From an uncultured bacterium (GTDB lineage: Bacteria > Eisenbacteria > RBG-16-71-46 > CAIMUX01), in assembly GCA_964371055.1 (NCBI GenBank), contig CAYJLF010000001.1, positions 277,639 through 341,638 of the forward strand: 64,000 nt of DNA, given 5' to 3'. A program made the position numbers and the translations under genes. Under the pieces are notes generated by a model. It did no database searches. It saw only the letters and a program-made list of their open reading frames with translations, and was not told the DNA's origin. Positions 10,832 to 48,483 of this stretch are shown here, one piece after another (position 1 is the first letter of the stretch; the number at the start of each line of letters is the position of its first letter).

Positions 10832-12601
10832 ATGGCCGGGGCTGATCGCCGCATCGACCGCCGCAGTCTGCGCCGTCTGCTGCGCCTGCTGCTGGAACAT
10901 CGCCGCGCCCTCGCCATCGGCTTCGCTGGTCTGGTCGCCGTCGACCTGCTCCAGCTCCTCATTCCGAGATTGACGCAGGAGATCGTCGATCGCCTCGCGC
11001 GCGGCATCGCGGCCCCCCGTACCTTGTGGCTCCTGGCCGGGGCGATGGTCCTCGTGTCGATCGGGATGGGCCTCTGCCGGTTTCTCTGGCGCTATTTCCT
11101 CATCGGATCGAGTCACCGGATCGAGCGCGATCTGCGGCAGAAGCTCTACGATCACCTGCAGCGGCTTTCCCCTTCGTACTACGATCGGATGAAGGTCGGG
11201 GACATCATGGCGCACGCCACGAACGATCTGACCGCGGTGCGCATGGCCACCGGCCTGGCGACCTTGGCCGCCATCGACGCGGTGGTCCTCGCCACGGCCA
11301 GCGTCTCGGTCATGCTCACGATGAACGTGCGGCTGACGCTCCTGACCCTGATTCCGCTCCCCTTGCTCACCGTGCTGATGGCGCGCTTCGGCCGGATTGT
11401 GCACGCCCGGTTCACGGCGGTGCAGGAAGCGTTCTCCCGCCTGACCGAGAAGGCGCAGGAGACGATCTCGGGCGTCCGGGTGGTCAAGGCGTACGGCGAC
11501 GAGGCGTCGGAGAACCGCTACTTCTCCGACCGCGCACGCGACTCGGCCCGGGAGAACATCCGGCTCGCTCGCACGTGGGGCCTCTTCGATCCGGTCATCA
11601 GCGCGCTGGCCCGGGCGAGTCTGGCGATCCTGGTCGCGGCCGGCGGAACGATGGTGGTCCGCGGCCAGCTCTCCCTGGGCCAGTTCGTCGCCTTCACCAG
11701 CTATCTCAACATGCTGATCTGGCCGATGATGGCCGCCGGCTGGGTGGTCAACCTCCTGCAGCGCGGCACGGCCAGCCTCGACCGCCTGCAGGTGATCTTC
11801 GAGACGTCGCCCGAGATCATCGACGGCCGGCGCGCCGACCCGCCTCGCCCCCTCCTGTCCGTGCGGGACCTCCACTTCACCTATCCGGGCGCACCCGAGC
11901 CCGTGCTCCGCGGGATCAGCTTCGACTTGCCGGCCGGCGCCACGCTGGGGATCGTGGGACGGACCGGCTCGGGAAAGACGACCCTCGTGGAGCTGCTCCT
12001 CCGGCTCTACGATCCTCCGGTCGGGTCGATCCGGCTCGACGGCACCGATGTGCGCGATTGGAAGCTGGACCGGCTGCGCGCGGCGTTCGGCTACGTGCCG
12101 CAGGAAACGTTCCTCTTCGCCCTCAGCGTGGCCGACAACATCGCGTTCGGCGTCGATGATCTCCCGCGGAGCGAAGTGGTGCGCCTGGCGAGCCTGGTCG
12201 CCATCCACGAGGAGGTGCTGGCCTTCCCCGACGGGTACGACACCCTGGTGGGCGAGCGGGGCGTCACGCTCTCCGGCGGGCAGAAGCAGAGGATCGCCAT
12301 CGCCCGCGCGCTCGCTCGCGATCCCCTTCTTCTGGTGCTCGATGATGCGCTCTCCAGCGTCGATACCGGGACGGAGAGCCGGATCCTGGACGCGCTGCGC
12401 CACGGGCGCGAGCAGCGCACCAACATCCTGATCGCCCACCGGACCAGCACCGTGCGGATGGCCGACCTGATCCTCGTGCTCGAGGGGGGCGCTCTCACCG
12501 AGGCGGGCACTCACGAGGAGTTGCTCGCGCGCGGCGGGTACTATCGCGATCTTCACCGCATGCAGGAACTGGAAGACGAGGCGCGGCGCGTCGAGGTCTG
12601 A
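10832..12601 (+). CDS. ABC exporter, fused permease/ATPase (type I exporter, MsbA-like); half of a probable heterodimer
   Basis: Six-TM domain followed by Walker A GRTGSGKTT, LSGGQKQRIAIARAL, LLVLDDALSSVD and IAHR. Confidence 0.85.
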   Translation: MAGADRRIDRRSLRRLLRLLLEHRRALAIGFAGLVAVDLLQLLIPRLTQEIVDRLARGIAAPRTLWLLAGAMVLVSIGMGLCRFLWRYFLIGSSHRIERDLRQKLYDHLQRLSPSYYDRMKVGDIMAHATNDLTAVRMATGLATLAAIDAVVLATASVSVMLTMNVRLTLLTLIPLPLLTVLMARFGRIVHARFTAVQEAFSRLTEKAQETISGVRVVKAYGDEASENRYFSDRARDSARENIRLARTWGLFDPVISALARASLAILVAAGGTMVVRGQLSLGQFVAFTSYLNMLIWPMMAAGWVVNLLQRGTASLDRLQVIFETSPEIIDGRRADPPRPLLSVRDLHFTYPGAPEPVLRGISFDLPAGATLGIVGRTGSGKTTLVELLLRLYDPPVGSIRLDGTDVRDWKLDRLRAAFGYVPQETFLFALSVADNIAFGVDDLPRSEVVRLASLVAIHEEVLAFPDGYDTLVGERGVTLSGGQKQRIAIARALARDPLLLVLDDALSSVDTGTESRILDALRHGREQRTNILIAHRTSTVRMADLILVLEGGALTEAGTHEELLARGGYYRDLHRMQELEDEARRVEV

Positions 12602-12636
12602 GGGAACGAAGCGGACGGACGGAGAGGCAGGAAGCG

Positions 12637-14796
12637 ATGCGAGGAGGCACAGGCGGGTCGCTCGGAGCCGGCGGGGGCCGGGGCGGCGGCGGTCGGGGCC
12701 CCGGCGGCGGATCCCGCGCCGACGACGACGAGCAACTGGGCCGGGTCTACGACGGGCGGCTCGTACGGCGGCTGCTGCGCTACGTGCGGCCCCACCGGCG
12801 GCTCGTCCTGCTCGCCATGCTGTTCATGTCGATCGCCACGGCCGTCGACCTCATCACGCCCTGGATGATCAAGACGGGGATCGACAGCTACCTCGCCCGG
12901 CTCTACCTCGTCTGGGAGGGGGACCCGGCGTCGATCACGGACGTGGCCTCCGGGGCCGACGCGCTCCTCCTCGCGGAACCGGGGGTTCTGCTGGTGCGGA
13001 CCGCCGGCCGAGGCGCCGTCTCGACCGAAACCCGCCGGCGCCTCGAGGGAGCCGGGACCCTGCATCCCGCGACCTGCTACCTCTTCCCCGCCGCGGACCG
13101 CCGGGACCAGATCGGTTCCGTTCGCGGCGACTACTGGCTGGTCCCGGAAGGGGATCTGGCCCGAGTCCCACCGGCCACCCTCGTGCGGATCCGCGGCGCC
13201 GACATCGACGGGGTTCGACGGCTGGCGCTGGCTCTCGGCGGACTGATCCTGCTCGGGCTCCTGGTCGGCTACGGCCACGTCTATACCCTGTCGGTCGCCG
13301 GTCAGCGCGCGATGTTCGATCTGCGGGTCGACCTGTTCCGCCACCTCGGCACGCTGTCGCTGCGCTACTACGATCGCAATCCCCAGGGGCGGCTCGTGAC
13401 GCGTGTCACGAACGACATCGAGGCGCTGAACGAGATGTTCGCCGCCGTCCTCGTCAACCTCGTCAAGGATATCCTGCTGCTGGCCGGCACCATCGCGCTC
13501 CTCTTCGCCATGAACGTGCGCCTCGCCGCAATCGCGCTGACGGTGATCCCGGTCATCCTCGCCGTTTCCCTCCTCTTCCGCCGCCATGTGCGCGGCGTCT
13601 ACCGCGAGGTGAGGCGCCTGATCGCCGCGCTGAACGCCGGGCTGGCCGAGGACATCGGCGGCGTCAAGGTGGTGCAGGCCTTCGGACGCGAACGCGCACG
13701 CCGCGCCCTCTACCGGGAGACGAACGACGCCTATCTCGGCTCCAACCTGCGGCAGCTCGTCATCTTCGGGATCTTCCGCCCGGCGGTGGAAATCCTGGCG
13801 TCGGTGGGCGTGGCGCTGGTGTTGGTCTACGGCGGTCTCGGAGTCCTGTCGGGGGCCCTCACCCTGGGCGCGCTCGTCGCCTTCATCACCTATGTGCGCG
13901 GCATGTTCCAGCCCGTCGCCGACATGAGCGAGAAGTACAACATCATGCAGAGCGCGATGGCTTCGGCGGAGCGGATCTTTGGAATCCTCGACACCGAGCC
14001 GGAGGTGCGGGACGCCACGGTGGAACCCCCGGCCGAAGCGTCTCCGGAGACCGCCGTGCGCCCGGTGCGCGGACGGGTCGAGTTCCGGGGCGTCTCCTTC
14101 GCCTACACGCCGGAGACCCCGGTGCTGCGGGAGGTCAGTTTCGTGGTGGAGCCCGGTCGCAGCGCCGCCCTCGTCGGCCCGACGGGCGCCGGCAAGACCT
14201 CGATCCTCTCGCTGCTCTGCCGGTTCTACGATGTGAACGACGGCGCCGTCCTGATCGACGGAGTCGACGTCCGGCAATGGCCGGCCCGGGATCTCCGGCG
14301 GAACATCGCCATCGTGCTGCAGGACGCCTTCGTCTTCAGCCGGTCGATCCGCGAGAACATCACCTTGGGAACTCCGATGGCCGAGGCCGAGGTCCGGCGG
14401 GCCGCCGAGATGGTGCAGGCGCTCGACTTCATCGAGCGGCTGCCGGACGGTCTCGACACGGTGATGGCCGAACGGGGCGCCACGCTCTCGACCGGGCAGC
14501 GGCAGCTCATCTGCTTCGCCCGCGCCCTGGCCCATGATCCCCGCATCCTGATCCTGGACGAGGCGACCAGCAGCGTCGATCCCGAGACCGAGCGGAAGAT
14601 CCAGCAGGCGACGGTCACCCTGATGCACGGGCGGACCAGCATCGTGGTCGCGCACCGCCTGAGCACGATCCAGCGCGCCGACGAGATTCTCGTCTTCGAC
14701 GGCGGCCGGATCCTGGAGCGGGGATCCCATCGCGAGCTGCTCGACCGGCGCGGGATCTACCACAACCTGCACCTCTTGCAGTATCGTACCGGCTGA
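12637..14796 (+). CDS. ABC exporter, fused permease/ATPase; partner half-transporter. Unusual ~120-aa extracytoplasmic insert between TM1 and TM2 and a Gly/Arg-rich N-terminal tail
   Basis: Walker A GPTGAGKTS, LSTGQRQLICFARAL, ILILDEATSSVD and VAHR. Lies 36 nt after the previous gene. Confidence 0.85.
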   Translation: MRGGTGGSLGAGGGRGGGGRGPGGGSRADDDEQLGRVYDGRLVRRLLRYVRPHRRLVLLAMLFMSIATAVDLITPWMIKTGIDSYLARLYLVWEGDPASITDVASGADALLLAEPGVLLVRTAGRGAVSTETRRRLEGAGTLHPATCYLFPAADRRDQIGSVRGDYWLVPEGDLARVPPATLVRIRGADIDGVRRLALALGGLILLGLLVGYGHVYTLSVAGQRAMFDLRVDLFRHLGTLSLRYYDRNPQGRLVTRVTNDIEALNEMFAAVLVNLVKDILLLAGTIALLFAMNVRLAAIALTVIPVILAVSLLFRRHVRGVYREVRRLIAALNAGLAEDIGGVKVVQAFGRERARRALYRETNDAYLGSNLRQLVIFGIFRPAVEILASVGVALVLVYGGLGVLSGALTLGALVAFITYVRGMFQPVADMSEKYNIMQSAMASAERIFGILDTEPEVRDATVEPPAEASPETAVRPVRGRVEFRGVSFAYTPETPVLREVSFVVEPGRSAALVGPTGAGKTSILSLLCRFYDVNDGAVLIDGVDVRQWPARDLRRNIAIVLQDAFVFSRSIRENITLGTPMAEAEVRRAAEMVQALDFIERLPDGLDTVMAERGATLSTGQRQLICFARALAHDPRILILDEATSSVDPETERKIQQATVTLMHGRTSIVVAHRLSTIQRADEILVFDGGRILERGSHRELLDRRGIYHNLHLLQYRTG

Positions 14797-20047: not shown

Positions 20048-21700
20048 ATGCCTGTCCATCCCCTGGCCGGACGGCCGGCGCCACGCGAGTGCCTGGCCAA
20101 CATCCCCCGCCTGGTGACCGCCTACTACGCGGTGCGTCCCGACCCAGGGGACACATCGCAGCGCGTCGCCTTCGGCACCTCGGGCCACCGGGGCACCTCC
20201 TCCCACGGAAGCTTCAACGAGACTCATGTCCTAGCGATCTGCCAGGCGATCGTCGAGACACGAAGCGCCGCCGGCATCGACGGTCCGCTCTTCCTCGGCA
20301 TGGACACCCACGCGCTCTCGGAGCCGGCGTTCGCCACCGCGGTCGAGGTGTTTGCCGCCCACGGCGTCGAACTCAGGATACAGGCGGGACGAGGCTACAC
20401 CCCGACGCCGGTGATCTCACACGCCATCCTCACCCACAATCGCGCCCACCGCGCCGGCGCGGCCGATGGCGTGGTCATCACTCCCTCGCACAATCCGCCT
20501 CCCGACGGCGGCATCAAGTACAACCCTCCCAGCGGCGGCCCGGCGGACACCTCCCTCACCCGGGCGATCGAGGAGCGCGCGAACGCGCTCATCCGGGAGG
20601 GCCTCGGGGGAGTGCGGCGCATCCCGTTCGAGCGAGCCCTCCGGACCTCGACCACGGTCGAGCACGACTACGTCATCCCCTACGTGACCGATCTCGCCTC
20701 GGTCGTCGACCTGGAATCGGTGCGCGGCGCCGGAGTGAAGATCGGCGTCGATCCGATGGGGGGCTCCGGGCTCGAGTACTGGGCGCCGATCGCCGAGACT
20801 TACCGCCTGGATCTCCAGGTCGTCAATCCGACGGCCGATCCGACCTTCTCTTTCATGACGCTCGATTGGGACGGCAAGATCCGCATGGACTGCTCTTCGC
20901 CCTATGCGATGGCGGGGCTGATCGGCCTGAAGGACCGTTTCGACATCGCCTTCGGCAACGACCCCGACTACGACCGCCACGGGATCGTGACGCCGGACGG
21001 CGGCCTGATGAACCCCAATCACTATCTCTCGGTCGCGATCGATTACCTCTTCCGGCGTCGTTCCGGCTGGAGGCCGGCGGCCGCGGTCGGCAAAACGCTC
21101 GTCTCCAGCTCGATGATCGATCGGGTGGCCGCTGCCCTCGGCCGTCCGCTGGCCGAGGTGCCGGTCGGGTTCAAGTGGTTCGTCGACGGCCTGCTGGACG
21201 GATCGCTGGGATTCGGAGGCGAGGAGAGCGCGGGCGCATCCTTCCTTCGCCGGGACGGGACCGTCTGGACGACAGACAAGGACGGCATCCTCCTCGATCT
21301 GCTCGCGGCGGAGATCACCGCCGTCACCGGGCAGAACCCGCACCGCCATTACCGCGAGATCGAAGAGCGGCACGGCTCCCCGGTCTACGAGCGGATCGAT
21401 GCCCCGGCCGACCCGGCGCAGAAGAAGGTCCTCGCCGGCCTCGCGCCGGAGATGGTGACCGCGGACCGCCTGGCGGGTGATCCGATCAAAGCCTGCCTGA
21501 CGCGCGCCCCGCACAACGACGCGCCGATCGGCGGACTTAAGGTGGTCACGGACGACGGCTGGTTCGCTGCCCGTCCTTCCGGCACCGAGAACGTCTACAA
21601 GATCTACGCGGAGAGCTTCCGCGGCCCGGATCACCTGCGCCGCATCCAGGAGGAGGCGCAGGCGATCGTGGCCGGGGCGTTTCGGCGCGCCGGGGTGTGA
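20048..21700 (+). CDS. pgm: Phosphoglucomutase (alpha-D-glucose phosphate-specific)
   Basis: N-terminus [51 protein letters not shown] parallels E. coli Pgm. Metal-binding and sugar-binding loops are present. Confidence 0.9.
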
Positions 21701-21728
21701 GCGGAGGCGGCCGGGTCCGGGTCCTACG

Positions 21729-22307
21729 CTAGCGGCCGAATCGCTCCTTCAACCGTCCCCACGACCGCTGCCAACGCGTGGGGCTATCCTCACCGGGAGT
21801 GTCCGCCGGGTTGGCTACGACTGTGATCGTCGTGTTGACCCGTACTTCGCCGTGAGCCGATCCGCCATTCCCCGTGTTGCCGAACCAGGCCGCTCTCCAG
21901 ACGTAGTTCCCCGGCTGAGCGGGCGCCGTGGCCGTGAGCTGCACCGGGAACACGACCGGGTTGCCCAACCCGTCATCGCCCGTCCCGGTCGGGCCTTCCC
22001 GGCGCGCGACCTCAACATTGTTGTGGTCGTAGAGAAGAGCGCGGATCCATCCGCTCTGCTGCCCGCCGTTCAGAGTGACGGTCACTGGATCCCCGGGGAA
22101 GTACTCTCCCTGGCTCGGCGAGGCCGCGAGCGAGCCGCGATGGTGATGGCATCCATTGCAGGAGACCGAGTCGTTGTTGTGACAGCTGCTGCATCCCTCG
22201 CTGCTCCAGAAGCTGGGGAAGGCCGAGACGAGGGTTGCAGCCCCGCCGAGCACCAGGGAGATGGCGAGGAGCACAAGCAGTCGGGACCGCGGAATACGGC
22301 AGGTCAT
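21729..22307 (-). CDS. Small secreted protein with two CXXCH motifs (putative dihaem c-type cytochrome or metal-binding protein) plus a beta-sandwich-like domain
   Basis: Signal peptide MTCRIPRSRLLVLLAISLVLGGAATLVSA, then CSSCH...CNGCHHH. GGAGG Shine-Dalgarno sequence 6 nt before the ATG at 22307. The track ORF had a 35-aa extension. Confidence 0.45.
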   Translation of the reverse strand: MTCRIPRSRLLVLLAISLVLGGAATLVSAFPSFWSSEGCSSCHNNDSVSCNGCHHHRGSLAASPSQGEYFPGDPVTVTLNGGQQSGWIRALLYDHNNVEVARREGPTGTGDDGLGNPVVFPVQLTATAPAQPGNYVWRAAWFGNTGNGGSAHGEVRVNTTITVVANPADTPGEDSPTRWQRSWGRLKERFGR

Positions 22308-22573
22308 GGGTGAAACCTCCTCTATGCGTGGGGCCTGAGACCGGGACGGGACGAGGAGCCTGTGGCGAGCTCGAGTCCATGCAGGTCCGTTGCGTGCCGC
22401 CCCGGAACACAAGCGGTAAGAGCCGATGCCGAGACCCGGCCGGCGCGCAGCCGCCCAAGTCAGGACCCAGCATTGTACACTCGGACACTCGTGAGTTCAA
22501 TCGCCCTTGTACAGGTCGCAACCAGCACTCACGCTCAGCATCGAGACATGGTCGCACCCTCATCGAGGGCGCG

Positions 22574-23080
22574 TCAGTCCACCCAGCGGAACCACTCCTT
22601 CGGGTGACCACAGATCTGGCACTTGTCGGGCGGTGCGTCGCCGAACTCGATGTTGCCGCACTTCTCACAGACCCAGACGCCGTGCGGTCGGAAGTCCTCG
22701 CCCCGTTCCGCGGCCGCGAGCGCCGCCTGATACATCCGCGCGTGGACCTCCTCCGCCGCTTTCGCCCAGACGAAGGTCTTCGCCGCTTCCTTCACCCCAT
22801 CGGCGCGGGCCTCCTCGAGAAAACGCACATACATGTCGGTGTACTCGTAGGTCTCACCGGCCACCGCGTCTTTCAGGTTTTCGGCCGTCGACTTCACTCC
22901 GCCCAGGTGGTCGAACTCACGCAGCGCGTGGATCGTCTCGGCGTGCGCCGCGGCGCGGAACAGCTTGGCGATCCCGTGGAATCCCTCGGCGTCGGCCTTG
23001 CGCGCATAGGCGAGGTACTTGCGGTTGGCCTGACTTTCGCCGGCGAAGGCGCTCTTCAGATTCTCGTCGGTGCGGCTCAT
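22574..23080 (-). CDS. rbr: Rubrerythrin (diiron ferritin-like domain plus C-terminal rubredoxin-like CxxC...CxxC)
   Basis: EXXH ferritin-like motifs (AHAETIHAL, EEVHARMY) and a C-terminal CEKCG...CQICG. This is the only credible coding part of the 556-aa composite track ORF. Confidence 0.85.
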   Translation of the reverse strand: MSRTDENLKSAFAGESQANRKYLAYARKADAEGFHGIAKLFRAAAHAETIHALREFDHLGGVKSTAENLKDAVAGETYEYTDMYVRFLEEARADGVKEAAKTFVWAKAAEEVHARMYQAALAAAERGEDFRPHGVWVCEKCGNIEFGDAPPDKCQICGHPKEWFRWVD

Positions 23081-23277
23081 GCTCTCCCCTTCCCGCCGGG
23101 ATGAACCCGGCATCTCCTCCCCCATCGAAGGTCCCTCCGTCGCGCCCGGAACCTGCGGGGCGCGAGGCAGTCCCATGCTAGCAGAGAGCGTCCAGGCCTC
23201 CACGCGCATCCCGCGGGCCGGCGGGGCGCGCCGCGGCGAGCGGCAGAGGCCACCTCGGAGGTACGGAAGAGGGTGGG

Positions 23278-24180
23278 CTATCGCTGGACGAGGATCTTGC
23301 GGGTGAGACTCCGGCCGTCGGCCTCCGCCCGACAGAGATAAACCCCCTGGTGGACCGGGAGTCCGTGTCGATCGAGCCCATCCCAGGCCAACCGGTGGTA
23401 CCCGGCGTCCATCGGCCCGTCGGCCAGCCGACGAAGGAGGCGGCCCCCGGCGTCGAACAGCAGGACACGGACCTCGGAGGGGCCCGCGAGGCGGAACGAG
23501 ATGGAACCAGCGTCGAGCACCGGGTTGGGCCAGGCGCGCAGATCGGAGAGCGGTCCCCCCGAGCTCGCCGTCGGCGCGTCCACCCAGGCCGGATCGGGCG
23601 CCTCGGGAACGAGCAGGTCGATGGCGTAGACGTAGTCTCCGCCGGTGAGCCCGTTGTTGTTGGCCGCGTTGGCCGTGAGGTAGAAGTGCGCATCCCCGGC
23701 TCCCGCCGCGGGCGCAGTCCAGAGGATCTGCCACGAGGCGGCATCGAGCTGTCCCGCGAAACTCCCGGCGCTGGTCTGCTTGAGGTAGTCCCGAGCGGTG
23801 CCCGGTCCCTCGGAGAGCTGCACGAGCGCAACGTCGACCGGGGAGAGGGCGCCCGCCTCGTTCCCATCGTCCTCGCGCATCACTGTCGTCTCGAATCCCC
23901 AGCGCCGCTGGCCGTCCTGCTGGATGCTGACGGTGAGGGGATAGGTCTGACCGGCGGTATAGGCTGCGGGCAGCCCCGCGATCGACACCAGGCCAGGACC
24001 GCTGTTGAGCGGGAACGAGCCGTGACAGGCGGTACAGGTGTCGAAGGCCGGCGGATCCCCGGCGTGGCCATCCGGCGGCCCCGAGCTGAAGGCGGCGACG
24101 GGCGCGACGTCCCACAGCACGAGCCCTCCGGCCAGAACCAATACATCGGCGAGCGTTCGAACTCGATGACGAGGCTCCAT
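23278..24180 (-). CDS. Secreted CXXCH-motif protein (putative monohaem c-type cytochrome-like) with a FlgD-Ig-like C-terminal domain
   Basis: Signal peptide, then FDTCTACHG near the mature N-terminus. C-terminus WPNPV...VRVLLFDAGGRLLRRL...LAWDGLDRHGLPVHQGVYLCRAEA...KILV. AGGAG Shine-Dalgarno sequence 8 nt before the ATG at 24180. Confidence 0.5.
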   Translation of the reverse strand: MEPRHRVRTLADVLVLAGGLVLWDVAPVAAFSSGPPDGHAGDPPAFDTCTACHGSFPLNSGPGLVSIAGLPAAYTAGQTYPLTVSIQQDGQRRWGFETTVMREDDGNEAGALSPVDVALVQLSEGPGTARDYLKQTSAGSFAGQLDAASWQILWTAPAAGAGDAHFYLTANAANNNGLTGGDYVYAIDLLVPEAPDPAWVDAPTASSGGPLSDLRAWPNPVLDAGSISFRLAGPSEVRVLLFDAGGRLLRRLADGPMDAGYHRLAWDGLDRHGLPVHQGVYLCRAEADGRSLTRKILVQR

Positions 24181-24320
24181 CGATCGGACTCCTCTCTCCA
24201 CCGCGCGAGAGCCGGGCGGCGCCCGATGGTGGCCGTAGGTCCACGTAACGGCGGAAGGAAACCGATGAGCATAGCCGATGGAGCTCGGCCCCGTCGAGTC
24301 GCGGAATCCGGTCCGACGAC

Positions 24321-25457
24321 TCAGGTCGTCCGCGCCGCGCGCACTGCCTGCCGGAGCATCCAGATCACCAGCACGACCCCCGCGACGAAGAGGACAAGGA
24401 ACAGGATCAGCGGGCTCAGCTGCAGGTTGACCGGCTCGGCCGTCACGTCGACGTGGGGCGCCAGTTCCGCGTTCTGAACCACCTGCCGGCTGACCGCGTT
24501 CAGACCGAGGACCGCGAACTGGACCAGGAGGGCGGCGATCCCCCAGCTACGCGGCACTCCGCCGGCCTGGCGAGAGACCCGCCTCGCGAGGAGCAGGATC
24601 CAGAGCCAGGAGAACAAAGGCGCCAGCGCCGTCGCCAGGGTCAGCACGGCCAGCGGGGGCTCCAGCAGACGAGCGCGGAGCGCAGGATCCAGCGCGCCGA
24701 GGATGTACCACGATCCGGCCGCGACGGTCCAGATCACGCCAAAGAGGCCGAGGCGCCCGGCGAAGGTGACCGCCCAGCGACGGTACTCCACGCCCTGCGA
24801 TCCCGCGAACACCACGGTGTCGAACGCGATCCAGGCCGAGGTCGTCGTCAGGGCAAGGCCGAACATCAAAAGCCAGCGCGGCCAGAGGGTCGGATCGCCG
24901 AGGTTGAGCGCGGTGCCAAGCGGCGCCCCGCCGACCGAGGTCGCTTCCCACAGACCGGCCCAGGCGTCGATGCGGGTCATGAGGCTGAAGTTGTTCGCGA
25001 AGAGCCATCCGATCACAACCAGGAGGATGGACGCCACCCAGCCCGCGGCGCGACGCCAGGGAGGGAGCGCGCCGGCCCGGAGTCCCAGCGCATAGATGTA
25101 GACGCCGTAGTACGCGACCGTGAGCAGGAGGATGACCGAGAACCAGGGCCAGGCCATCAGGATGCCCGCCGGGTAGTACGCCTTGTAGTAGGCCACCTGG
25201 GTGAAGAGCAGGGGCACGATGCCAAGATTCACGCCGCAGGCGACGATGACCGGCATCGCGTTCATGATCCGTCCCCCGAGGAGGGACGCATGGTCGTTTC
25301 CGCGGCGCCGCAACAACAGCGCCACCGGAATCCCGGCGAACCAGAGATTCATCGGCAGCGCGTGGAGGGCGAAGCCCAGGACCTTGAAGAGCACCAGAAA
25401 CCAGAACGGAGCCGGGTAGCCGAGGGGATTGTCCGGAGCCATCAGGGCCGGGTTCAT
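24321..25457 (-). CDS. Cytochrome bd-like oxidase subunit II-like (CydB-like) polytopic membrane protein
   Basis: ~9 predicted TM helices and a size (378 aa) typical of CydB. Translationally coupled (4-nt overlap) to the upstream CydA-like gene. Weak direct sequence signature, so the assignment rests largely on context. Confidence 0.45.
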   Translation of the reverse strand: MNPALMAPDNPLGYPAPFWFLVLFKVLGFALHALPMNLWFAGIPVALLLRRRGNDHASLLGGRIMNAMPVIVACGVNLGIVPLLFTQVAYYKAYYPAGILMAWPWFSVILLLTVAYYGVYIYALGLRAGALPPWRRAAGWVASILLVVIGWLFANNFSLMTRIDAWAGLWEATSVGGAPLGTALNLGDPTLWPRWLLMFGLALTTTSAWIAFDTVVFAGSQGVEYRRWAVTFAGRLGLFGVIWTVAAGSWYILGALDPALRARLLEPPLAVLTLATALAPLFSWLWILLLARRVSRQAGGVPRSWGIAALLVQFAVLGLNAVSRQVVQNAELAPHVDVTAEPVNLQLSPLILFLVLFVAGVVLVIWMLRQAVRAARTT

Positions 25458-26914
25458 GGCCTGTCCCTCCCCACCTGCCCCGGCGGCCCGCCGAGATCAG
25501 GCAACCCCTTCGGGAACGGTTCCGAGATCGCCGCCAGGTACTCCTGCAACAGGGCCGCCTCTTCCGGAGTCCCCGCCCAGGGAGGCATGAAGAAATGCGC
25601 GCGCTCGGGATGCTCGACCACCAGCCGGATCATCTCTTCGCTCCAGCCGCGAGTGAGGTGCGCCACGGCCGACAAACCCGCCGTCGAAGCGTGGCAATCG
25701 TTGCAGTGGTATTGGAAGAGCACCTCCCCGACCTTCTTTCGATCGACCGGCGGTAACTCCAGGAGGGAGCGTTCATCGATCTTCAAGGTCCCGGCCGTCC
25801 CCGCTGTTCGCATCGACCCTGCCGCCCAGGCGGCGGCCCCCTCCCACGACACCGCCTGCGGGTAGCGCCGCGCGACCCAGGCCCGCGTCCAGACGCCCCC
25901 CTCCAGGTAGCCGCGTTCGCGCAGGGGCATCAGCTCGTCTTTGTAGATCTGGTTGCTCCAGACCACGTCGTAGACGATGTAAGGCTTGCGCACGGCTTCG
26001 CGGATGAACTCCCCCGTGCCGACGGCCGCCAGACCGAAGGAGAAGAGGAGGATCGAGAACCCGGGGCTGACCCAACCCGGGCGCCGGTAGGGACCGAGAT
26101 AGAGCATGACGAAGACGATCGCGGTGACCGCGAAGATGATGCTCATGAGGATGTTGAGCGGAGCGGCCGCCACCAGCGCGGCCTGGGCCGAATCCGGGAG
26201 CGCGGCGTACCACCAGAGGCCCCCGAGCGTGACCAGGGCCGCGCCGAGCAACCCGGGGCGCGCCGAGCGCCGGCCGATCATCTCGAGCAGACCGTCTCCC
26301 TTCAGGCGGAAGGACGCATGCAGGTAGACATAGAGGCTCGCCAGGAGGAGCGCCCCGCCGGTCCGCGCGATCGTCTGCGGGAGAAACTGCGGGTTCAGAA
26401 AGCCGGTCCAGAATCCGTGGTTCTCGGGCCAGCGCCCCGGATGAAGCATGAACGCGGTGATCCCGGTGATGAGGACCAGCGAGATCCACGCTGCGCCCGC
26501 ATAGATCCAACCGATCTGCACGTGGGTCCTCGGCGGCAGCCGGTCCCAGAAGTAGTAGAAGACGAAGGCCGCGACGACCTCGATCGCGAAGAAGACATAC
26601 TCCATCGCCCAGCCGAAGACGAAGGCATGGATCAAGGCCTCGGTCGCCACCGGCGAGGCGAGTCCGATCGTCCACCAGATGCCGACGCCGGTGATCGCGC
26701 CGTAGACCACGGTGAGCAGAATGAAGAACTTCGCGTGGTCCTTGAGATAACCGAGATAGTCCCGACGCCCCTCGCGCCGGGCGAAGCCGGTCTCGGCAGC
26801 GAGGAACATCCCGCCACCGACGGCGTACATCGAGACGAAGACATGCAGGACCGCGATGGCCGCGATCAGCATCGGGGCGGTCAGGAACGGAACGTGCCAC
26901 CACGGATAGTGCAT
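25454..26914 (-). CDS. Cytochrome bd-family oxidase subunit I-like (CydA-like) with a fused C-terminal monohaem cytochrome c domain, no Q-loop (OR-C-like)
   Basis: N-terminal TM helices with conserved His in the AVLHVFVSMYAVGGG region. IREAVRKPYIVY resembles the CydA GRQPWIVY motif. C-terminal soluble domain carries CNDCH (CXXCH) and a distal Met region. Confidence 0.55.
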   Translation of the reverse strand: MHYPWWHVPFLTAPMLIAAIAVLHVFVSMYAVGGGMFLAAETGFARREGRRDYLGYLKDHAKFFILLTVVYGAITGVGIWWTIGLASPVATEALIHAFVFGWAMEYVFFAIEVVAAFVFYYFWDRLPPRTHVQIGWIYAGAAWISLVLITGITAFMLHPGRWPENHGFWTGFLNPQFLPQTIARTGGALLLASLYVYLHASFRLKGDGLLEMIGRRSARPGLLGAALVTLGGLWWYAALPDSAQAALVAAAPLNILMSIIFAVTAIVFVMLYLGPYRRPGWVSPGFSILLFSFGLAAVGTGEFIREAVRKPYIVYDVVWSNQIYKDELMPLRERGYLEGGVWTRAWVARRYPQAVSWEGAAAWAAGSMRTAGTAGTLKIDERSLLELPPVDRKKVGEVLFQYHCNDCHASTAGLSAVAHLTRGWSEEMIRLVVEHPERAHFFMPPWAGTPEEAALLQEYLAAISEPFPKGLPDLGGPPGQVGRDRP

Positions 26915-26950
26915 CGATCCCTCCCGGTGCAGGCCGGCTCAGGCAAAGCG

Positions 26951-28021
26951 TCAGATGAAGCGATAGGTCAGACCGAGCGCGAGGGTCTGCTTGAACTGGC
27001 CGGTCTTGCGAATGGCCGTGCGCAGCGCCTCGCGGTTCTGCAGGCGGCGGTCGTCCGAGACCACGGGCAGGACCGAGTTGTCGTACTTGTCGTAGACCAG
27101 CCGGGTGTAGAGCTTGACCGAGATCAGCTTCGTGAGCTGCGAGGAGAACTCGTTCTCCCAATCGACGTCCACCATCTTGACGTAGTCGGCAACGTCGGTC
27201 GGAAGGTTCCGCTCGCCCGGTCCGGGCCCTTCAAGTTCCGTCGCGGTCAGCAGGTCGAACTCGTCATCCCCCGAGTAGAAGAGCGCCTGATAGAAACCCA
27301 GCTTGCCGGACCAGGCGATCTTCCCTCCGGCCAACTTCGTCTTGTAGTCATTGATCAACTCGAGGCCGCCGTCGTTCGTCCCCTGAGTCTCGGTCGAGAG
27401 GTCGTTCCGGTCGACCTCGTTCTGGAAGACCTGCCGCGAACTCTGCCGGAAGGTGAAACCCAGCCTCGAGAGGAGCTGGTGGTCGGGCTGGTCGATGAAC
27501 TTCCGCGCGATCCCGGCCGATTCCTTGAACTTCAGGGGATTGAAACTCAGCCGGCGTCCGAGCGGATCGGTCAGATCCTGGAACTGGCTCTCGAAGCGGA
27601 CCGAAGCGAACGGGTCAACGTATCCGCCCAGGGTCAGGCGGAGGATCGACTCCAGGTCGATCAGGTCGTTGCTCTTCTCCGGCCGGTCCCAGCTTCGCTC
27701 CCCGTCCACCGTACTGACCACCTGCTGGTGTGTCTGGCCGTAGGCGAGCTTCAGCGTTGAGAGCCAGTTCGCCTTCACGCTGACCTGGTTCTCGAGCGCG
27801 CCGTTCAGGGTCGCGGTCCAGGACATCGCCCCCTTGTCGCCGCCATTCCAGTTGGTCGAGTAGGAGCTCTGCGTCAGCAGCAACCCACCCTCCAGCAGGG
27901 GATACCACTTTCCGGGTTCGAGGACCCGCTTTCCGTCCTTCGCTGCGTCCTCGGCGCCGGCCGGCGCTGCCCACGCGACGAAGAGGACCAGCCCCAACCC
28001 CAGGCACAAGCGTCGCATCAT
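26951..28021 (-). CDS. DUF3078-like outer-membrane beta-barrel protein
   Basis: Signal peptide MMRRLCLGLGLVLFVAWAAPAGA, alternating beta-strand pattern, and a C-terminal ...LGLTYRF aromatic terminus typical of OM beta-barrels. GAGGAGG Shine-Dalgarno sequence before the ATG at 28021. Confidence 0.55.
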   Translation of the reverse strand: MMRRLCLGLGLVLFVAWAAPAGAEDAAKDGKRVLEPGKWYPLLEGGLLLTQSSYSTNWNGGDKGAMSWTATLNGALENQVSVKANWLSTLKLAYGQTHQQVVSTVDGERSWDRPEKSNDLIDLESILRLTLGGYVDPFASVRFESQFQDLTDPLGRRLSFNPLKFKESAGIARKFIDQPDHQLLSRLGFTFRQSSRQVFQNEVDRNDLSTETQGTNDGGLELINDYKTKLAGGKIAWSGKLGFYQALFYSGDDEFDLLTATELEGPGPGERNLPTDVADYVKMVDVDWENEFSSQLTKLISVKLYTRLVYDKYDNSVLPVVSDDRRLQNREALRTAIRKTGQFKQTLALGLTYRFI

Positions 28022-28171
28022 CGGTCTTCTTCCTCCTCTGCGCCCGCCGGATCTACGCAAGGCACCATGCCCGAGCTCGACCCGGCCTTGCCAGTCTCGA
28101 AACACCGGTCCCGATCCGCACGCCGGCCCGGGCCGCTCCCGCGGAGCGTTCGCATCCTTGGGAGCCGCGCA

Positions 28172-29059
28172 TCATTCGTTCGCCGTCCGGGCGAAGACCA
28201 CATTCGACAGGGAGGACTCGTTTCCGGCCTCGTCGATCGCCTTCAGTCCGAATTCATAGCGGGTGGCTGCGGCGAGTCCACGCACCGTGTACTCCTCGGC
28301 CTGACCTGATGGATAGGGTGTGAAGCTGATCTCGGCGGAATCGGCCTCCGCCCAGGTCGCCTCGTCCAGGGACCCGGTCGTGTAGCGCAACATGTACCGC
28401 GCGGATGTGCCCTCCTCACCGTCGTCCCCGGGGGCGGACCAGGCCAGGCGAACGGTGCTCGACGTCACCGCCACGACCTCCAGATCGGTGATCGCCGAGG
28501 GTGGGACACCGTCGGGCGGCGGCAGGTAGAAGGAGTAGTCGACCGACAGCCGCCCCTGGTTGCCCGCCTCATCGATCGCACGCAGAGCGAAGTGATGCAC
28601 CCAGTCGACGCGCAGGCCGGAGACCCGCATCGAGTCCCGTTGCCCGGAGGCACTCGGGGCCGGCAAGCCGGTGATCACTTCGGCCGAGTCCCAGACCGCC
28701 AGCGTGATGACCGTGTCATGGCGGCGCAGCTCGTAGGCGTGGGCCCGCCCCGCATAGCGATCGTCTCCGGGGGCGGTCCAGATCAGCAGCACGACGCCAT
28801 CGCCGGCGACCTGCGCCGACAGGTCATCGATCTGAGCGGGAGGCGTGATGTCCAGTGGCGCGGCCGGATCATCGTCCCCGGAACAGGCGAGGAGGAGCAA
28901 GGGCAGCAGCAGGACGGCCGGCGCCAGCGCCCGGAGCAGCCGCGCCACTCCGCCGCTCGGTCTCGACTCCTCCGCATGGAAAGGTCGGTTCAGACGAAGA
29001 GTGGCGTGCGTTGTCCCCCGGTGGCGCGCGTCGATCTCGTCCTGGTGGAATCTCCCCAT
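28172..29059 (-). CDS. Lipoprotein with two fibronectin type III-like repeats
   Basis: Lipobox LLLLACSGDDD. Two repeats of ...LxWTAPGDDxxxGRAHAYELR... / ...LAWSAPGDDGEEGTSARYMLRY..., each followed by KAIDEAGN. Start taken at the ATG at 29059 with a GGGGAGG Shine-Dalgarno sequence; an internal GTG at 28948 is also possible. Confidence 0.5.
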   Translation of the reverse strand: MGRFHQDEIDARHRGTTHATLRLNRPFHAEESRPSGGVARLLRALAPAVLLLPLLLLACSGDDDPAAPLDITPPAQIDDLSAQVAGDGVVLLIWTAPGDDRYAGRAHAYELRRHDTVITLAVWDSAEVITGLPAPSASGQRDSMRVSGLRVDWVHHFALRAIDEAGNQGRLSVDYSFYLPPPDGVPPSAITDLEVVAVTSSTVRLAWSAPGDDGEEGTSARYMLRYTTGSLDEATWAEADSAEISFTPYPSGQAEEYTVRGLAAATRYEFGLKAIDEAGNESSLSNVVFARTANE

Positions 29060-29255: not shown

Positions 29256-29499
29256 GGATAGACCTCCTTGAACCTCCGGTCCCGTCTTCCGTCCGTGGGG
29301 AGTCTACCCTCGGGTCCGCAAGCGGCTCAAGCGTCGGCGAACCGGCCCGGGGTGGGGGTGGACGGAACAGAACTCCATGCCTTGCCCGCTGTGGTGGGAG
29401 GGACCCGCCCGTGCCGCGCTTCTACGGTTGGCTCCGATGGTGTATCCTCTTCGACGGTTGATCCCCCACCCGGCTTCCATTCTCGACAGGAGGCACAGC

Positions 29500-30543
29500 A
29501 TGCGACTTGCCACCGGACTTTTCGCACTCTTGGTCCTGACCGCTCCGGCCGACGCGCAGCGGCTCTTCGTCGGTCTGGAGGGCACGGGGCTTCCCACCCG
29601 GTCCTCCGACCTGGCAGGGTTTCCCAATGTCTCCTGGAGCGATCACAACGCCTGCGATGTCAGCGGCGCCGCGGCCACTCCCGAAGGGGAACTCCTGATC
29701 TGCGCCGGCCCCTTCACGACACGGCTCTACCGCCTCGCGCTCAGCGGCTCGCCGGAGCTTCTGGCCACGATCTCGGTCGACATTCACGGCATGGGGTATG
29801 GGAACGGAACGCTCTACGGTTTCTCGAACTTCACCTCGCCGCGAGGGATCTACACGATCGACCGGACGACGGGGCAGGCCGCGCTGGCCGTCGACCTGGA
29901 CGCCTCGGGATTCCGCTTCTTCGCGCTCGACTTCAACCCGGACGACGGCCTGCTCTACGGGTACACCGAGTACGGTTCACCGACCGGTCTGTACTCCATC
30001 GATCCGGTCTCGGGCGCCACGACCTTCATCACGGGACCGATCCCGGCGTCCAATACGCAGGGACGCGCACTGGCGGTCGGCCATGGCACGATCTATCTGG
30101 CGGCGACGCGGGGCGCGGACGAGATCCCGCTCTATGCCTACGACCTCGAGGCGGGCGCACAGTGGGTGGCGTTCACAGCGCCCTATCCGCAGTCGAATGC
30201 GACGGGAGGCGCGGCCTGGATCCCGGCGCCCGCGAGCGGTCTGCCCGCGGGGAAGGATGCGTATGGACTCTCCCCCACCATCGACCTCGTCGCGCCAAAT
30301 CCGGTGCGCAACGGAGCGCGGGTCGCGTGGTCGCTTCCAGCCCCGGGTCGGTATCGCCTGGAACTGTTCGATGTGGCCGGACGGTGCGTGTCGGTGCTCG
30401 ACGCCGGGATGATCGATTCAGGCTCCTGGACGACGACCTGGAATCGGACGGTGGAGGGCGCCGGCCTGCCGGCGGGAACCTACTACCTCCGCTTGTGGAC
30501 GGAGGGCGGAGACGCCACGGCCCCGATTCGGCTCATCCGGTAG
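29500..30543 (+). CDS. Secreted beta-propeller-like protein with a FlgD-Ig-like C-terminal domain
   Basis: Signal peptide MRLATGLFALLVLTAPADA with an AGGAGG Shine-Dalgarno sequence. Repetitive LYG/IYT blades. C-terminus APNPVRNGARVAWSLPAPGRYRLELFDVAGRCVSVL... Confidence 0.55.
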   Translation: MRLATGLFALLVLTAPADAQRLFVGLEGTGLPTRSSDLAGFPNVSWSDHNACDVSGAAATPEGELLICAGPFTTRLYRLALSGSPELLATISVDIHGMGYGNGTLYGFSNFTSPRGIYTIDRTTGQAALAVDLDASGFRFFALDFNPDDGLLYGYTEYGSPTGLYSIDPVSGATTFITGPIPASNTQGRALAVGHGTIYLAATRGADEIPLYAYDLEAGAQWVAFTAPYPQSNATGGAAWIPAPASGLPAGKDAYGLSPTIDLVAPNPVRNGARVAWSLPAPGRYRLELFDVAGRCVSVLDAGMIDSGSWTTTWNRTVEGAGLPAGTYYLRLWTEGGDATAPIRLIR

Positions 30544-43842: not shown

Positions 43843-45339
43843 CTACTTCAACAGCAGCATCTTCCGGCTGCCAAACTCCGCGCCGGCGCGGACCGCATAG
43901 AAGTAAATCCCGGCGGGCAGCGGCCGCCCGTCGTCGCCGGTGCCGTCCCAGAGGTAGGTGAACTCACCCGGAGTCTCGTGCACGAGCACGGCGGAACGCA
44001 CGATCCGCCCGGCGGCATCGTGGATCCGCACGGCGACGCTTCCCGCCCGGTCGATCGCGTAACCGATGGAGGTTTCCCGATCGAACGGGTTGGGGCTGCT
44101 GCCGCGTAACCTCAGCCCGCCCGCACGAACGCCGGCCCCGATCGATTCATCCACCTGGCCGTCAGGCACCGAGGAGGAGGGGTTGCGGCGGTAGAGCACG
44201 ATGTGGCCCTGCAGGATGTAAATCGGCGGCGTGTGGCCGTTGTAGTTGTAGTTGCAGTCCGTGCAGGTCTGGCCGTTGACACACTCCGGGTTCGTCGGAC
44301 GGCAGTAGTTGACGTACGGCTGGACGTTGTAGTCGAAGGTGTTGTCCTCGCCCGGGAGGATGGCGCCGGTCAGGTCGACCTCCCACGCCGGGGCGGCGTC
44401 CCCGGGGCACCAGCCGGCGCGGTTATAGGTCCACGTTCCTCCCTGCGGGCTGCAGCTGTTCTGCGCGCAGTCGCCGCGCCACAGGTTGTGCTGGAAGACG
44501 GTGCCGTTGGCGGTGACCTGATGCCACCGGTTGCAGAACTCGGCGCAGTTGGCCGTGTTCCCCTGCCCGTGACCGGTGCAGTAGACGCGCCCCTTCACGG
44601 CATCGGGCGCTCCGTCGATCGGCACCGTCAAAGGCGCGAAGTGATTCTCGATCGGGTCATCGGGGTCGCCGTAGAGCGTCCAGTAGCTGGACCAGAGGTT
44701 GATCACCTCGTACGGGATCATGTCGGGTTCGCCGTGGATGAAGGCAAAGTCGATCGTGACAACCCACCCGCGCGTACCGCCGATCCAGGTCTCGATGTAG
44801 TTGCTCAGGAGCACGTCGCCGCGCAGCAGCTGCATGTAGTCGGTGACATCGATCTCCCAGGTGCAGCTCACCGGACGAGGCGGCGGCGTGATGTCGTAGG
44901 GCGTCACGACTCTCCCGATCTCGATCCACTCCAGTTCGCGCCCGCCGTCCGCTCCGATCCGGCCGGTCTCGCGGCCGAGGCGGAGATAGCCGATCCGGTC
45001 CCACGGATCGCAGTCGCCAGGCGACTCGGGACACTCGATCCGGTAGAACATGAGGACTTTCGAGACGTGAAGCGAAGTGTCAGGGAAGGTGAAGGTCGAG
45101 TCGTGCGACGTCGCCCAGTTGTAGAAGTCTCGGTCGTAGGTACGCACCCAGGTGGTATCGGGATCCTCGGCCCGGGCCGGGCCGACGACCGCGGCGAAGA
45201 GGACAAGGAGGGAGAGCAACCCGACCGTGAGGGTCCCTCGGACGAGGTCGACGGCCCTTTCCCTTCGCGGGTGAACGCGACCGGCCGGGGGCGCGACGCT
45301 CGAGCAGACCATCAAGGCGGACCGGACGCTGTGGCGCAT
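43843..45339 (-). CDS. Peptide-N4-(N-acetyl-beta-glucosaminyl)asparagine amidase F (PNGase F) homolog with a FlgD-Ig-like CTD
   Basis: TFTFPDTSLHVSKVLMFYRIECPESPGDCDPWDRIGYL...EIGRVVTPY...EIDVTDYMQLL...YIETW parallels PNGase F TFTFPADVTTVKTIKMFIKNECPNKTCDEWDRYANVYV...EIGRFITPY...EIDVTDFKSLL...YTETW. The catalytic D (CDPWDR), E (AEFCNRWH) and E (NRAGWCPGD) equivalents are present. Start at MRHSV, with GGAGG. Confidence 0.8.
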   Translation of the reverse strand: MRHSVRSALMVCSSVAPPAGRVHPRRERAVDLVRGTLTVGLLSLLVLFAAVVGPARAEDPDTTWVRTYDRDFYNWATSHDSTFTFPDTSLHVSKVLMFYRIECPESPGDCDPWDRIGYLRLGRETGRIGADGGRELEWIEIGRVVTPYDITPPPRPVSCTWEIDVTDYMQLLRGDVLLSNYIETWIGGTRGWVVTIDFAFIHGEPDMIPYEVINLWSSYWTLYGDPDDPIENHFAPLTVPIDGAPDAVKGRVYCTGHGQGNTANCAEFCNRWHQVTANGTVFQHNLWRGDCAQNSCSPQGGTWTYNRAGWCPGDAAPAWEVDLTGAILPGEDNTFDYNVQPYVNYCRPTNPECVNGQTCTDCNYNYNGHTPPIYILQGHIVLYRRNPSSSVPDGQVDESIGAGVRAGGLRLRGSSPNPFDRETSIGYAIDRAGSVAVRIHDAAGRIVRSAVLVHETPGEFTYLWDGTGDDGRPLPAGIYFYAVRAGAEFGSRKMLLLK

Positions 45340-45569
45340 GACGTTTCCTCCGCGGAACGGATGGTGAAGGAGGCCTCTCGGCCGGCGCGTGCTCGATGGG
45401 GGGGAGCGCGCGTCCCGGCACACGTTGGCGGAATCCTAGCCCGCCGGAGGCGCCGGGGCAATGGTGGTCCATGCCCGCTGGCCCTTGCTCTCCTTCCGGC
45501 TCCGTGCGATACTTGGTCCCGCGTTCCGCGATGGTCGCCTGATGAACCGGGATGCGAAGGACGTGTGAA

Positions 45570-46787
45570 ATGAAGTGGATCGGTTCGCTTCGGATCGCGA
45601 CCTGGGCCGCGGCCATGATCCTGGGTTCATGGGCTTCGCCCGCCTGGAGCTACGAAGGGGCCGTCGTCGTCTGGGGATCCAACAGCCACGGCCAACTCGA
45701 CGTCCCGGCGCCCGACAGCGGCTTCGTCGCGATCTCCGCGGGCGACTTCCATAGCCTCGGGCTCACCGCCGACCGAACCATCGTGGCCTGGGGATGGAAC
45801 GACTACGGGCAGTGCGAGGTGCCGGTTCCCAATGCCCGGTTTGTGGCGATCGATGCCAGCGGCGTCTACAACCTGGCCCTCAGAGAGGACGGAAGCATCG
45901 CTCCCTGGGGACTCAACAGCTACGGGCAGTGCGACGTGCCGGAGCCGAACCTCGGGTTCCGTGCCATCGCGGCCGGGGGGCTTCACGGTCTCGCGCTCCG
46001 GGACGACGGTTCGGTCGCCGGTTGGGGCTACAACGACTACGGACAATGCGATCCCCCGACGCCGAACTCCACGTTCGTCAAGATCTCGGCCGGGTCACTG
46101 CACAGCCTGGGGCTGAGGGCCGACGGAACGATCTCGGCCTGGGGCGCCGACTACTATGGGCAATGCGCGATCCCGGCGCCGAACAGCGGGTTCGTGGCAG
46201 TGGCGGCGGGTGGAGAGCACAGCCTCGGCCTGAGGGCCGACGGAGTGGTTGTCGCCTGGGGACTGAACAACTTCGGGCAATGCACGGTGCCGCCCCCCAA
46301 CTCCGGCTTCGTGGCGATCGCCGCCGGCCAGCAATTCAGCCTGGGAATCAAGTCCGACGGCACCATCATCGGATGGGGGTACAACAACCACGGTCAGTGC
46401 AACCCATCCCAGCCGAACAGCGGTTTCGTTTCCGTCTCGGCTGGGTACGCCCACGGGATGGGACTGCGCCTCCACCCCGCGGGCGTCCGGGACGAGGTCA
46501 CGGGAGCCACCGGGGTCACGCTCCTGCCCAACCACCCGAATCCGTTCCAGCCGACAACGACGATCCGGTTCGAGCTGCTCGACGCGCGATGGGCGCTGCT
46601 CCAGGTCTACGACATCCAGGGGCACCTCGTGCGCACCCTGGTCTCCGGTCCCGTGTCGCCCGGACGGCACGAAATGACCTGGGACGGTTCGTCGGACCAA
46701 GGCAGGGTTGTGCCGGCAGGCGTCTATCTCTGCCGGCTTCAGGCACGCGGGGTGGAGCGGACCCGGTCCATGGTCCTGACCAGATAG
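45570..46787 (+). CDS. RCC1-repeat (regulator of chromosome condensation-like) beta-propeller protein with a FlgD-Ig-like CTD
   Basis: Seven repeats of the form WGxNxYGQCxVPxPNxGFVAIAAGxxHSLGLRxDG. Signal peptide MKWIGSLRIATWAAAMILGSWASPAWS. CTD NHPNPFQPTTTIRFELL...LQVYDIQGHLVRTL. Confidence 0.75.
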   Translation: MKWIGSLRIATWAAAMILGSWASPAWSYEGAVVVWGSNSHGQLDVPAPDSGFVAISAGDFHSLGLTADRTIVAWGWNDYGQCEVPVPNARFVAIDASGVYNLALREDGSIAPWGLNSYGQCDVPEPNLGFRAIAAGGLHGLALRDDGSVAGWGYNDYGQCDPPTPNSTFVKISAGSLHSLGLRADGTISAWGADYYGQCAIPAPNSGFVAVAAGGEHSLGLRADGVVVAWGLNNFGQCTVPPPNSGFVAIAAGQQFSLGIKSDGTIIGWGYNNHGQCNPSQPNSGFVSVSAGYAHGMGLRLHPAGVRDEVTGATGVTLLPNHPNPFQPTTTIRFELLDARWALLQVYDIQGHLVRTLVSGPVSPGRHEMTWDGSSDQGRVVPAGVYLCRLQARGVERTRSMVLTR

Positions 46788-48440: not shown

Positions 48441-48483
48441 TCGTGGACCCCAAACGGCCCCGGGAGGGGGCAAGGAGACGACA

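Follow-up and report, generated by a model that had tools for sequence, protein, structure and literature searches.

The 64,000-nt stretch of DNA analysed here (hereafter the window; positions 277,639 to 341,638 of the forward strand of contig CAYJLF010000001.1, assembly GCA_964371055.1) comes from an uncultured bacterium placed in the GTDB lineage Eisenbacteria and carries, within 21.7-28.1 kb, six minus-strand genes that we refer to, in reading order, as F, A, B, C, D, and E. Sequence comparisons indicate that A and B very probably encode an ordinary single-haem member of the OR-C1 family of the cytochrome bd superfamily (i.e., OR-C1a plus OR-C1b), and comparison of this locus with related loci identifies the A-B pair alone as the conserved unit. 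An earlier note on this DNA had described A through E as a five-gene minus-strand run encoding a cytochrome bd-like oxidase module; all five open reading frames (ORFs) were recovered, together with F upstream of A, and are as follows.

25454-26914, minus strand: gene A (486 aa), putative OR-C1a-type bd subunit I
24321-25457, minus strand: gene B (378 aa), putative OR-C1b-type membrane partner
23278-24180 (start at 24180 or 24201), minus strand: gene C (300 aa), predicted secreted mono-haem CXXCH protein with a C-terminal sorting domain
22574-23080, minus strand: gene D (168 aa), rubrerythrin
21729-22307, minus strand: gene E (192 aa), small predicted secreted protein with two CXXCH motifs
26951-28021, minus strand: gene F, DUF3078 protein (Pfam PF11276, E = 6.6e-10)

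These ORFs are true genes rather than chance ORFs, as the third-position GC of the genes is 0.78-0.89 (compared to 0.68 GC in the region overall) and as searches with A and with B each gave over 1000 homologues at E ≤ 0.001, with the best 120 listed all at E < 1e-120; the window's sequence was also found in ENA metagenome contigs. The reading frames of A and B overlap by 4 bp (ATGA), and the intergenic gaps are 36 nt between F and A (26915-26950), ~140 nt between B and C, ~197 nt between C and D, and 266 nt between D and E; among A through E, translational coupling is limited to A-B.

Gene A matches the Pfam CydA model PF01654 at 49.2 bits (cut-off 26.2; E = 3.9e-13), with the main stretch of the match (residues 16-226) corresponding to profile positions 5-220 of 418, i.e., to the first half of the profile only. 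A profile built from 35 A homologues matched Geobacillus CydA (5doq_A) with E = 7.5e-8 in a profile search of the PDB, and hhalign of A against Geobacillus CydA gave a probability of 94% and paired H24 with H21, E105 with E101, and E112 with E108. The AlphaFold (AF2) model of A (predicted local distance difference test score [pLDDT] 82) has 8 membrane helices, and the 10 best PDB matches found with this model by Foldseek were all CydA chains, followed by CydB chains. Lys/Arg-rich loops alternate along A according to the positive-inside rule, which places both the N-terminus and the C-terminal domain outside, and at the position of the Q-loop, only ~13 residues connect helix 6 to helix 7 in the model. 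The reading of A in the earlier note as a haem c-fused, OR-C-type CydA without a quinol Q-loop is borne out by these results.

With regard to the haem ligands, the active-site and proton-path residues H24, E105, E112, H131, and S145 are kept in A, and both haem b558 ligands are lost, since Arg184 occupies the position of His186, a b558 ligand, and the family has no conserved Met at the position of Met393. Conservation was assessed in 28 representatives that are 29-55% identical (no more than 55% identity was allowed in this set); H24, R184, E302, E306, R309, P311, C404, C407, H408, and M443 are invariant among these, and E105 and E112 are each conserved in at least 90%. Three segments of A, all on the minus strand, bear on the assignment.

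25505-25762, minus strand: predicted class I cytochrome c domain at the C-terminus (A residues ~385-470)
25979-26005, minus strand: outer end of helix 8, with the invariant motif E302-x3-E306-x2-R309-x-P311 (GEFIREAVRKPY; A residues ~302-312)
25769-25822, minus strand: Ala/Gly-rich 18-residue linker insert (AAAWAAGSMRTAGTAGTL) between the membrane and haem c domains (A residues ~365-382)

The cytochrome c domain contains the haem-binding motif CNDCH at residues 404-408 (nt 25691-25705, confirmed by translation) and a distal Met443 within a FFMPPW motif; its match to PF13442 (25.9 bits) falls just below the cut-off of 27, and PF13442 is precomputed for most A homologues. Because of the positive-inside pattern and the 8-helix topology, this domain is predicted to be periplasmic, in agreement with the location proposed for it previously. 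The helix 8 motif GEFIREAVRKPY, which is not recorded in the 2021 survey of the superfamily by Murali, Gennis and Hemp, aligns with the GWxxAExGRQPW segment of canonical CydA as a weak second HMMER domain (conditional E = 1.6e-4). Based on this second domain, on the resemblance between the motifs, and on invariance across the family, E306 and R309 likely correspond to E445 and R448 in canonical CydA; if the equivalence of E306 and E445 is right, both active-site haem positions would be retained in the family. The linker insert AAAWAAGSMRTAGTAGTL is private to the window's A and missing in 34 aligned relatives, and in three of the longer A representatives, this position is taken up by a low-complexity linker of 100-350 residues.

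Gene B is identified by its fold, because none of the searches conducted gave a sequence-level link. Its AF2 model (pLDDT 90; predicted template modelling score 0.90) has 9 helices and the fold of a bd subunit; in the family alignment, helix 1 carries one invariant His (His32), helix 3 lacks Glu, and CXXCH motifs are absent. By contrast, B had no match at E ≤ 0.1 to Pfam or NCBIfam models, including the CydB model PF02322, and no match at E ≤ 10 in a profile search of PDB sequences; hhalign of B against the A family and against residues 4-198 of Geobacillus CydA gave probabilities of only 7.6% and 0.7%, respectively. The family of B is nevertheless large, with 55-65% identity across phyla, and among the closest relatives listed, the only one with a source name is labelled Candidatus Krumholzibacteriia. 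The label of a CydB-like subunit coupled to A, which the earlier note had given to B, thus holds for the modelled fold and for the 4-bp overlap with A, but would be wrong as a statement of family membership.

One genome per species was scanned, which yielded 456 stretches encoding an A relative, and the best 80 of these were taken with 8-kb flanks. These 80 loci carry the taxon labels Chloroflexota/Anaerolineae, Acidobacteriota, Planctomycetota, Armatimonadota, Bipolaricaulota, Zixibacteria, Kryptoniota, Ignavibacteria, Binatia, and Thermodesulfobacteriota, among others. B lies directly 3' of A in all 77 informative loci, which represent more than a dozen taxon labels, and in the remaining 3 loci the contig stops right after A; the median spacing between the A and B tblastn matches is 31 nt (79 pairs, including those of loci L084 and L085). 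Genes C, D, E, and F, on the other hand, gave no tblastn match in the 8-kb flanks of any of the 80 species-level loci, not even in the nearest relatives at 70-75% identity. When the flanking ORFs of the 80 loci were clustered all against all, every other family was confined to 15 loci or fewer, and when the 150 ORFs immediately beside A-B in the first 43 loci were scanned with Pfam, no family had more than 4 members; ORF calling was crude in both cases. Given the strict pairing of B with A, the absence of C through F, and the lack of a widely shared flanking family, the A-B pair alone is the conserved unit, and C, D, E, and F are lineage-specific neighbours. The order F-A-B-C-D is repeated only in L084, where the contig ends before the position of E; since L084 is such a close relative (its B is 93% identical), the shared order tells little. 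F was present beside A only in L001-L003 and L084, and D was beside A-B only in the window's own contigs and L084. The five-gene module that had been proposed for this locus is therefore not upheld as a conserved arrangement, its order recurring in L084 alone and there only up to the rubrerythrin gene. We also considered an apparent A-B fusion protein (P0302, 865 aa) as evidence for a complex and rejected it, as its middle third is out-of-frame-like and rich in Arg, Pro, and His; P0302 probably reflects a frameshift or an assembly error in a metagenome-assembled genome (MAG) of high GC content rather than a real fusion.

The organization of A and B corresponds to the OR-C family as described by Murali, Gennis and Hemp (2021), i.e., an 8-helix CydA that has no quinol site and carries a C-terminal periplasmic haem c, with an adjacent paralogue termed OR-C1b. 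As described by these authors, OR-C1 shares with A the 8 helices, the missing Q-loop, the C-terminal periplasmic CXXCH, the loss of the b558 ligands, the retained equivalents of H19, E99, and E107, and the 6 residues between the two glutamates; in addition, the residues of gene A and their numbers coincide with all eight entries of the OR-C1a reference row in their Table S6 (H24, E105, E112, S145, H131, Y121, V77, and W80). The OR-C partner is regarded in the same study as a CydA paralogue (OR-C1b), and B is accordingly placed as the adjacent second membrane subunit that is CydA-like in fold and lacks the channel glutamates. In OR-C1, as in A-B, a second bd-fold membrane protein lies directly downstream and is often a 'hypothetical protein' without haem c; Murali et al. 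list many single-haem OR-C1a genes beside OR-C1b genes of this kind, including pairs in Chloracidobacterium, Thermoanaerobaculum, Hydrogenobacter, and Desulfovibrio vulgaris DP4. Differences from the published description are the private 18-residue insert of A and the helix number of B, which is 9 in our model as compared to 8 for OR-C1b in the paper.

The membership of A-B in OR-C1 was judged by these published criteria and by homology to multi-haem relatives. Many-haem OR-C forms have been reported for Desulfovibrionia (Murali et al. 2021), and three long members of the A family (847-894 aa, multi-haem) align end to end with A at E values of ~1e-80 to 1e-92; three other long members carry long low-complexity linkers. 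Overall, a profile search of 1.84 billion representatives placed 329 clusters (50% identity) in the A family at E ≤ 1e-30, with member lengths from ~440 aa to >890 aa, while 532 OR-C enzymes were counted across 24,706 GTDB genomes in the 2021 survey. The window thus adds another OR-C1 member to a family that has been catalogued already and does not represent a new kind of system.

Comparison with two other bd-type systems helps to delimit the A-B pair. Canonical CydAB (e.g., E. coli bd-I, 6RKO, and the Geobacillus enzyme, 5DOQ) has the same fold in both of its subunits as A and B, and its helices 1-4 are recognisably homologous to those of A, with the His ligand and the two channel glutamates kept. 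Unlike canonical CydA, however, A is without a quinol site, Q-loop, b558 ligands, and helix 9 and has a fused haem c; B is without sequence similarity to CydB, and nothing resembling a small CydX ORF can be seen in the 140 nt that separate B from C. CydAA' (qOR4a/qOR4b), found in Caldivirga and other Archaea, includes, like A-B, a diverged CydA-like paralogue in which the helix-1 His is kept and the proton-channel glutamates are absent; CydAA' differs in that it oxidises quinol, has no haem c, and is archaeal.

Cytochrome c was proposed as the OR-C electron donor by Murali, Gennis and Hemp (2021), and we consider it reasonably likely that A-B is a cytochrome c-driven oxidase of the bd superfamily that works along these lines. 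A soluble or tethered periplasmic c-type cytochrome would reduce the single haem c in the C-terminal domain of A, which would substitute for haem b558 and the Q-loop as the point of electron entry. From there, electrons would move on to a high-spin (b- or d-type) haem site that A forms with its helices 1-4 and 8, with H24 as axial ligand, E105 at the site, and E306 and R309 in the roles of E445 and R448; O2, or possibly H2O2, would be reduced there with cytoplasmic protons delivered via E112, S145, and H131. B would serve as a structural partner that shares the fold of A, lacks the proton-path glutamates, and has one invariant His in helix 1. The comparisons show the homology, the topology, the conservation of residues, and the strict pairing of A with B; which donor and which oxidant are used, what types of haem are present, and whether B carries a haem are inferred.

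Several observations weigh against this account. No biochemical study or purification of any OR-C member was found in the literature searched, and it is for this reason that both O2 reduction and donation by cytochrome c are argued here from homology. The role given to B is a guess, as B has no sequence relation to anything. With regard to the helix 8 motif, residues 238-340 of A, when used alone (a 103-residue fragment) against the PDB, gave chance matches only and did not recover CydA, and according to Table S6 of the 2021 survey, OR-C1a has no E445 equivalent, as opposed to the invariant E306/R309/P311 motif that we find weakly aligned to ExGRQPW. In addition, the A family is common in MAGs labelled as largely anaerobic groups (e.g., Bipolaricaulota, Anaerolineae, and Thermodesulfobacteriota). 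Finally, the only expression datum found for an OR-C member concerns SMUL_0150, which the 2021 survey classes as a single-haem OR-C1a: it was 39.5-fold up in fermentation-adapted Sulfurospirillum multivorans and 7- to 8-fold higher in fermentative than in respiratory growth (PMC6242987, Table 2); this rise represents OR-C expression without oxygen and is awkward for a purely aerobic role.

The last two points also favour an alternative that we regard as rather unlikely, though worth serious consideration, namely that A-B is a bd-fold haem enzyme that is not mainly an O2 reductase and instead reduces H2O2, NO, or nitrite, or links cytochrome c with the membrane or quinone pool under anaerobic conditions. 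Canonical bd oxidases have peroxidase-type side activities, and a rubrerythrin, itself a peroxidase, adjoins A-B in the window; in addition, many sulphate reducers appear in the lists of Murali et al. (2021). However, the residues of the O2 site and proton path (H24, E105, and E112) are kept across the family, and anaerobes commonly carry oxidases for defence against O2, so that presence in these organisms is not decisive. Moreover, neighbouring superoxide dismutase (SOD) or peroxiredoxin genes point to oxygen exposure in several lineages: the gene immediately upstream of A-B encodes an Fe/Mn SOD in the three closest relatives (L004, L006, and L085) and a peroxiredoxin in L052. A thioredoxin-like gene lies 0.5-5 kb from A-B in six Bipolaricaulota loci. 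Together with the rubrerythrin gene downstream of A-B in the window and L084, these neighbours fit a role in defence against oxygen or peroxide but define no module. The suggestion in the earlier note that A-B scavenges O2 or H2O2 is plausible and has sporadic support from the SOD and peroxiredoxin genes.

A second alternative, which we consider improbable, is that genes A through E form one dedicated O2/H2O2-scavenging module, with C and E as specific electron donors and rubrerythrin as a functional partner. In its favour, the five genes share a strand and are closely spaced, L084 repeats the order F-A-B-C-D, and the properties of C and E are suggestive. C has a signal peptide, a choice-of-anchor V/Reeler-like domain (NCBIfam NF041895, E = 3.8e-25) with a CTACH motif, and a C-terminal sorting domain of the FlgD_ig/type IX secretion system (T9SS) type (FlgD_ig, 41.3 bits; TIGR04183, 24.2 bits with a cut-off of 23). 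Because the CXXCH is invariant in 18 C homologues (at times as CX3CH or CX4CH, and with a C-terminal anchor that varies), C is very likely a haem protein. D has a ferritin-like di-iron domain (PF02915, 81.3 bits, E = 1.1e-22) and a rubredoxin-like domain (PF21349, 32.3 bits), both passing the cut-offs of the respective Pfam models (Rubrerythrin and RUBY_RBDX), so that its previous designation as rubrerythrin stands; its score with the NCBIfam rubrerythrin equivalog (122 bits) is below the cut-off of 200. E, described previously as a small secreted protein with two CXXCH motifs that follows a 266-nt gap, does have a signal peptide and the motifs CSSCH and CNGCH, followed by a probable beta-sandwich; it has no family match in Pfam or NCBIfam and shows a faint collinear similarity to C (BLASTP E = 0.005 over 180 residues).

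Against a dedicated module, however, none of the 80 other species-level loci has C, D, or E in its 8-kb flanks, and the one relative that shares the order is too close for this to tell much. Homologues of C occur elsewhere in unrelated contexts, with none of three contexts examined near bd genes; likewise, the choice-of-anchor V/Reeler-like proteins (NF041895, Pfam PF02014), with which C shares the domain match, the variable C-terminal anchor, and the invariant CXXCH, showed no link to bd-type enzymes outside the window's lineage, and nothing was found in the literature on choice-of-anchor V haem proteins. Since the type IX secretion tail of C scores above the cut-off, C probably leaves the periplasm and is a cell-surface protein; the description of C as a periplasmic CXXCH protein with a FlgD-type C-terminal domain was hence correct in its motif and tail but is doubtful in its location. 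The gaps of 140-266 nt and a promoter-like site before E also speak against a single module. This site, which was the sole promoter-like match in 21500-28400 (0.3 expected from shuffles), is as follows.

22472-22500, minus strand: sigma-70-like promoter match TTGAAC-17-TACAAT, a consensus match only, upstream of E

Gene E is probably a separate transcription unit. C and E, which had been put forward as obvious candidate electron donors, are tied to A-B only by their local proximity, with 0 of 80 loci showing the same association.

A third alternative, which we consider very improbable, is that in the window's lineage the OR-C1 pair has been recruited into an envelope-spanning path for extracellular electron uptake. 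Here, F, a DUF3078 protein probably located in the outer membrane, together with C as a mono-haem cytochrome of the Reeler type exported to the surface via its T9SS tail and E as a small di-haem carrier in the periplasm, would convey electrons from a reductant outside the cell (e.g., Fe(II) or a reduced humic compound) to A-B, with rubrerythrin removing peroxide; if true, an oxidase system for extracellular electron uptake of this kind would be new. F may be co-transcribed with A-B in the window's lineage. The placement of F just upstream of A (36 nt away in the window) is also seen in the near-identical L084.

That A-B is an ordinary quinol-oxidising cytochrome bd (CydAB), as the Pfam CydA match of A and the automatic annotation of many homologues as 'cytochrome ubiquinol oxidase subunit I' might suggest, is scarcely credible and already contradicted by the sequence, given the lack of a Q-loop, the Arg at the His186 position and the lack of a conserved Met at the Met393 position, the 8 rather than 9 helices and fused haem c domain of A, the failure of B to match the CydB model, and a main Pfam match to A that spans only profile positions 5-220 of 418.

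If OR-C enzymes such as A-B are indeed bd oxidases driven by cytochrome c, they would offer electrons from cytochrome c a third way to reach O2 in addition to the haem-copper oxidases, and they may explain oxygen tolerance in many uncultured lineages that are usually held to be anaerobic. The window supplies a clean two-gene unit for expression, confident models of both subunits, and a short list of invariant residues worth mutating (H24, E105, E112, R184, E302, E306, and R309 in A and H32 in B). It also carries a caution, in that attractive neighbouring genes for haem proteins and rubrerythrin lie outside the conserved system.

Some further features of the window were noted. No tRNA genes and no Rfam matches at gathering score were found across its 64 kb (1-64000). 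Two adjacent ABC half-transporters (589 and 719 aa; 10832-14793) were considered as the bd-assembly factors CydDC and rejected, as their scores with the CydD and CydC models are far under the cut-offs and lower than those with SmdA/MsbA-type models. A second antioxidant cluster is located 20 kb from the genes described above (46801-49095) and consists of genes for a peroxiredoxin (46801-47622, minus strand), a thioredoxin-like protein (47789-48238, minus strand), and an Fe/Mn SOD (48376-49095, plus strand). At least five proteins encoded in the window, including C, end in a FlgD_ig/T9SS-type domain (167-913, plus strand; 23278-24180, minus strand; 29377-30543, plus strand; 43846-45423, minus strand; and 45552-46784, plus strand), and ahead of this tail they carry N-terminal domains of unrelated kinds, including RCC1 repeats and PNGase F-like, DUF6923-like, and choice-of-anchor V domains; judging from these sequences, the organism appears to export many cargo proteins via a tail of this type.

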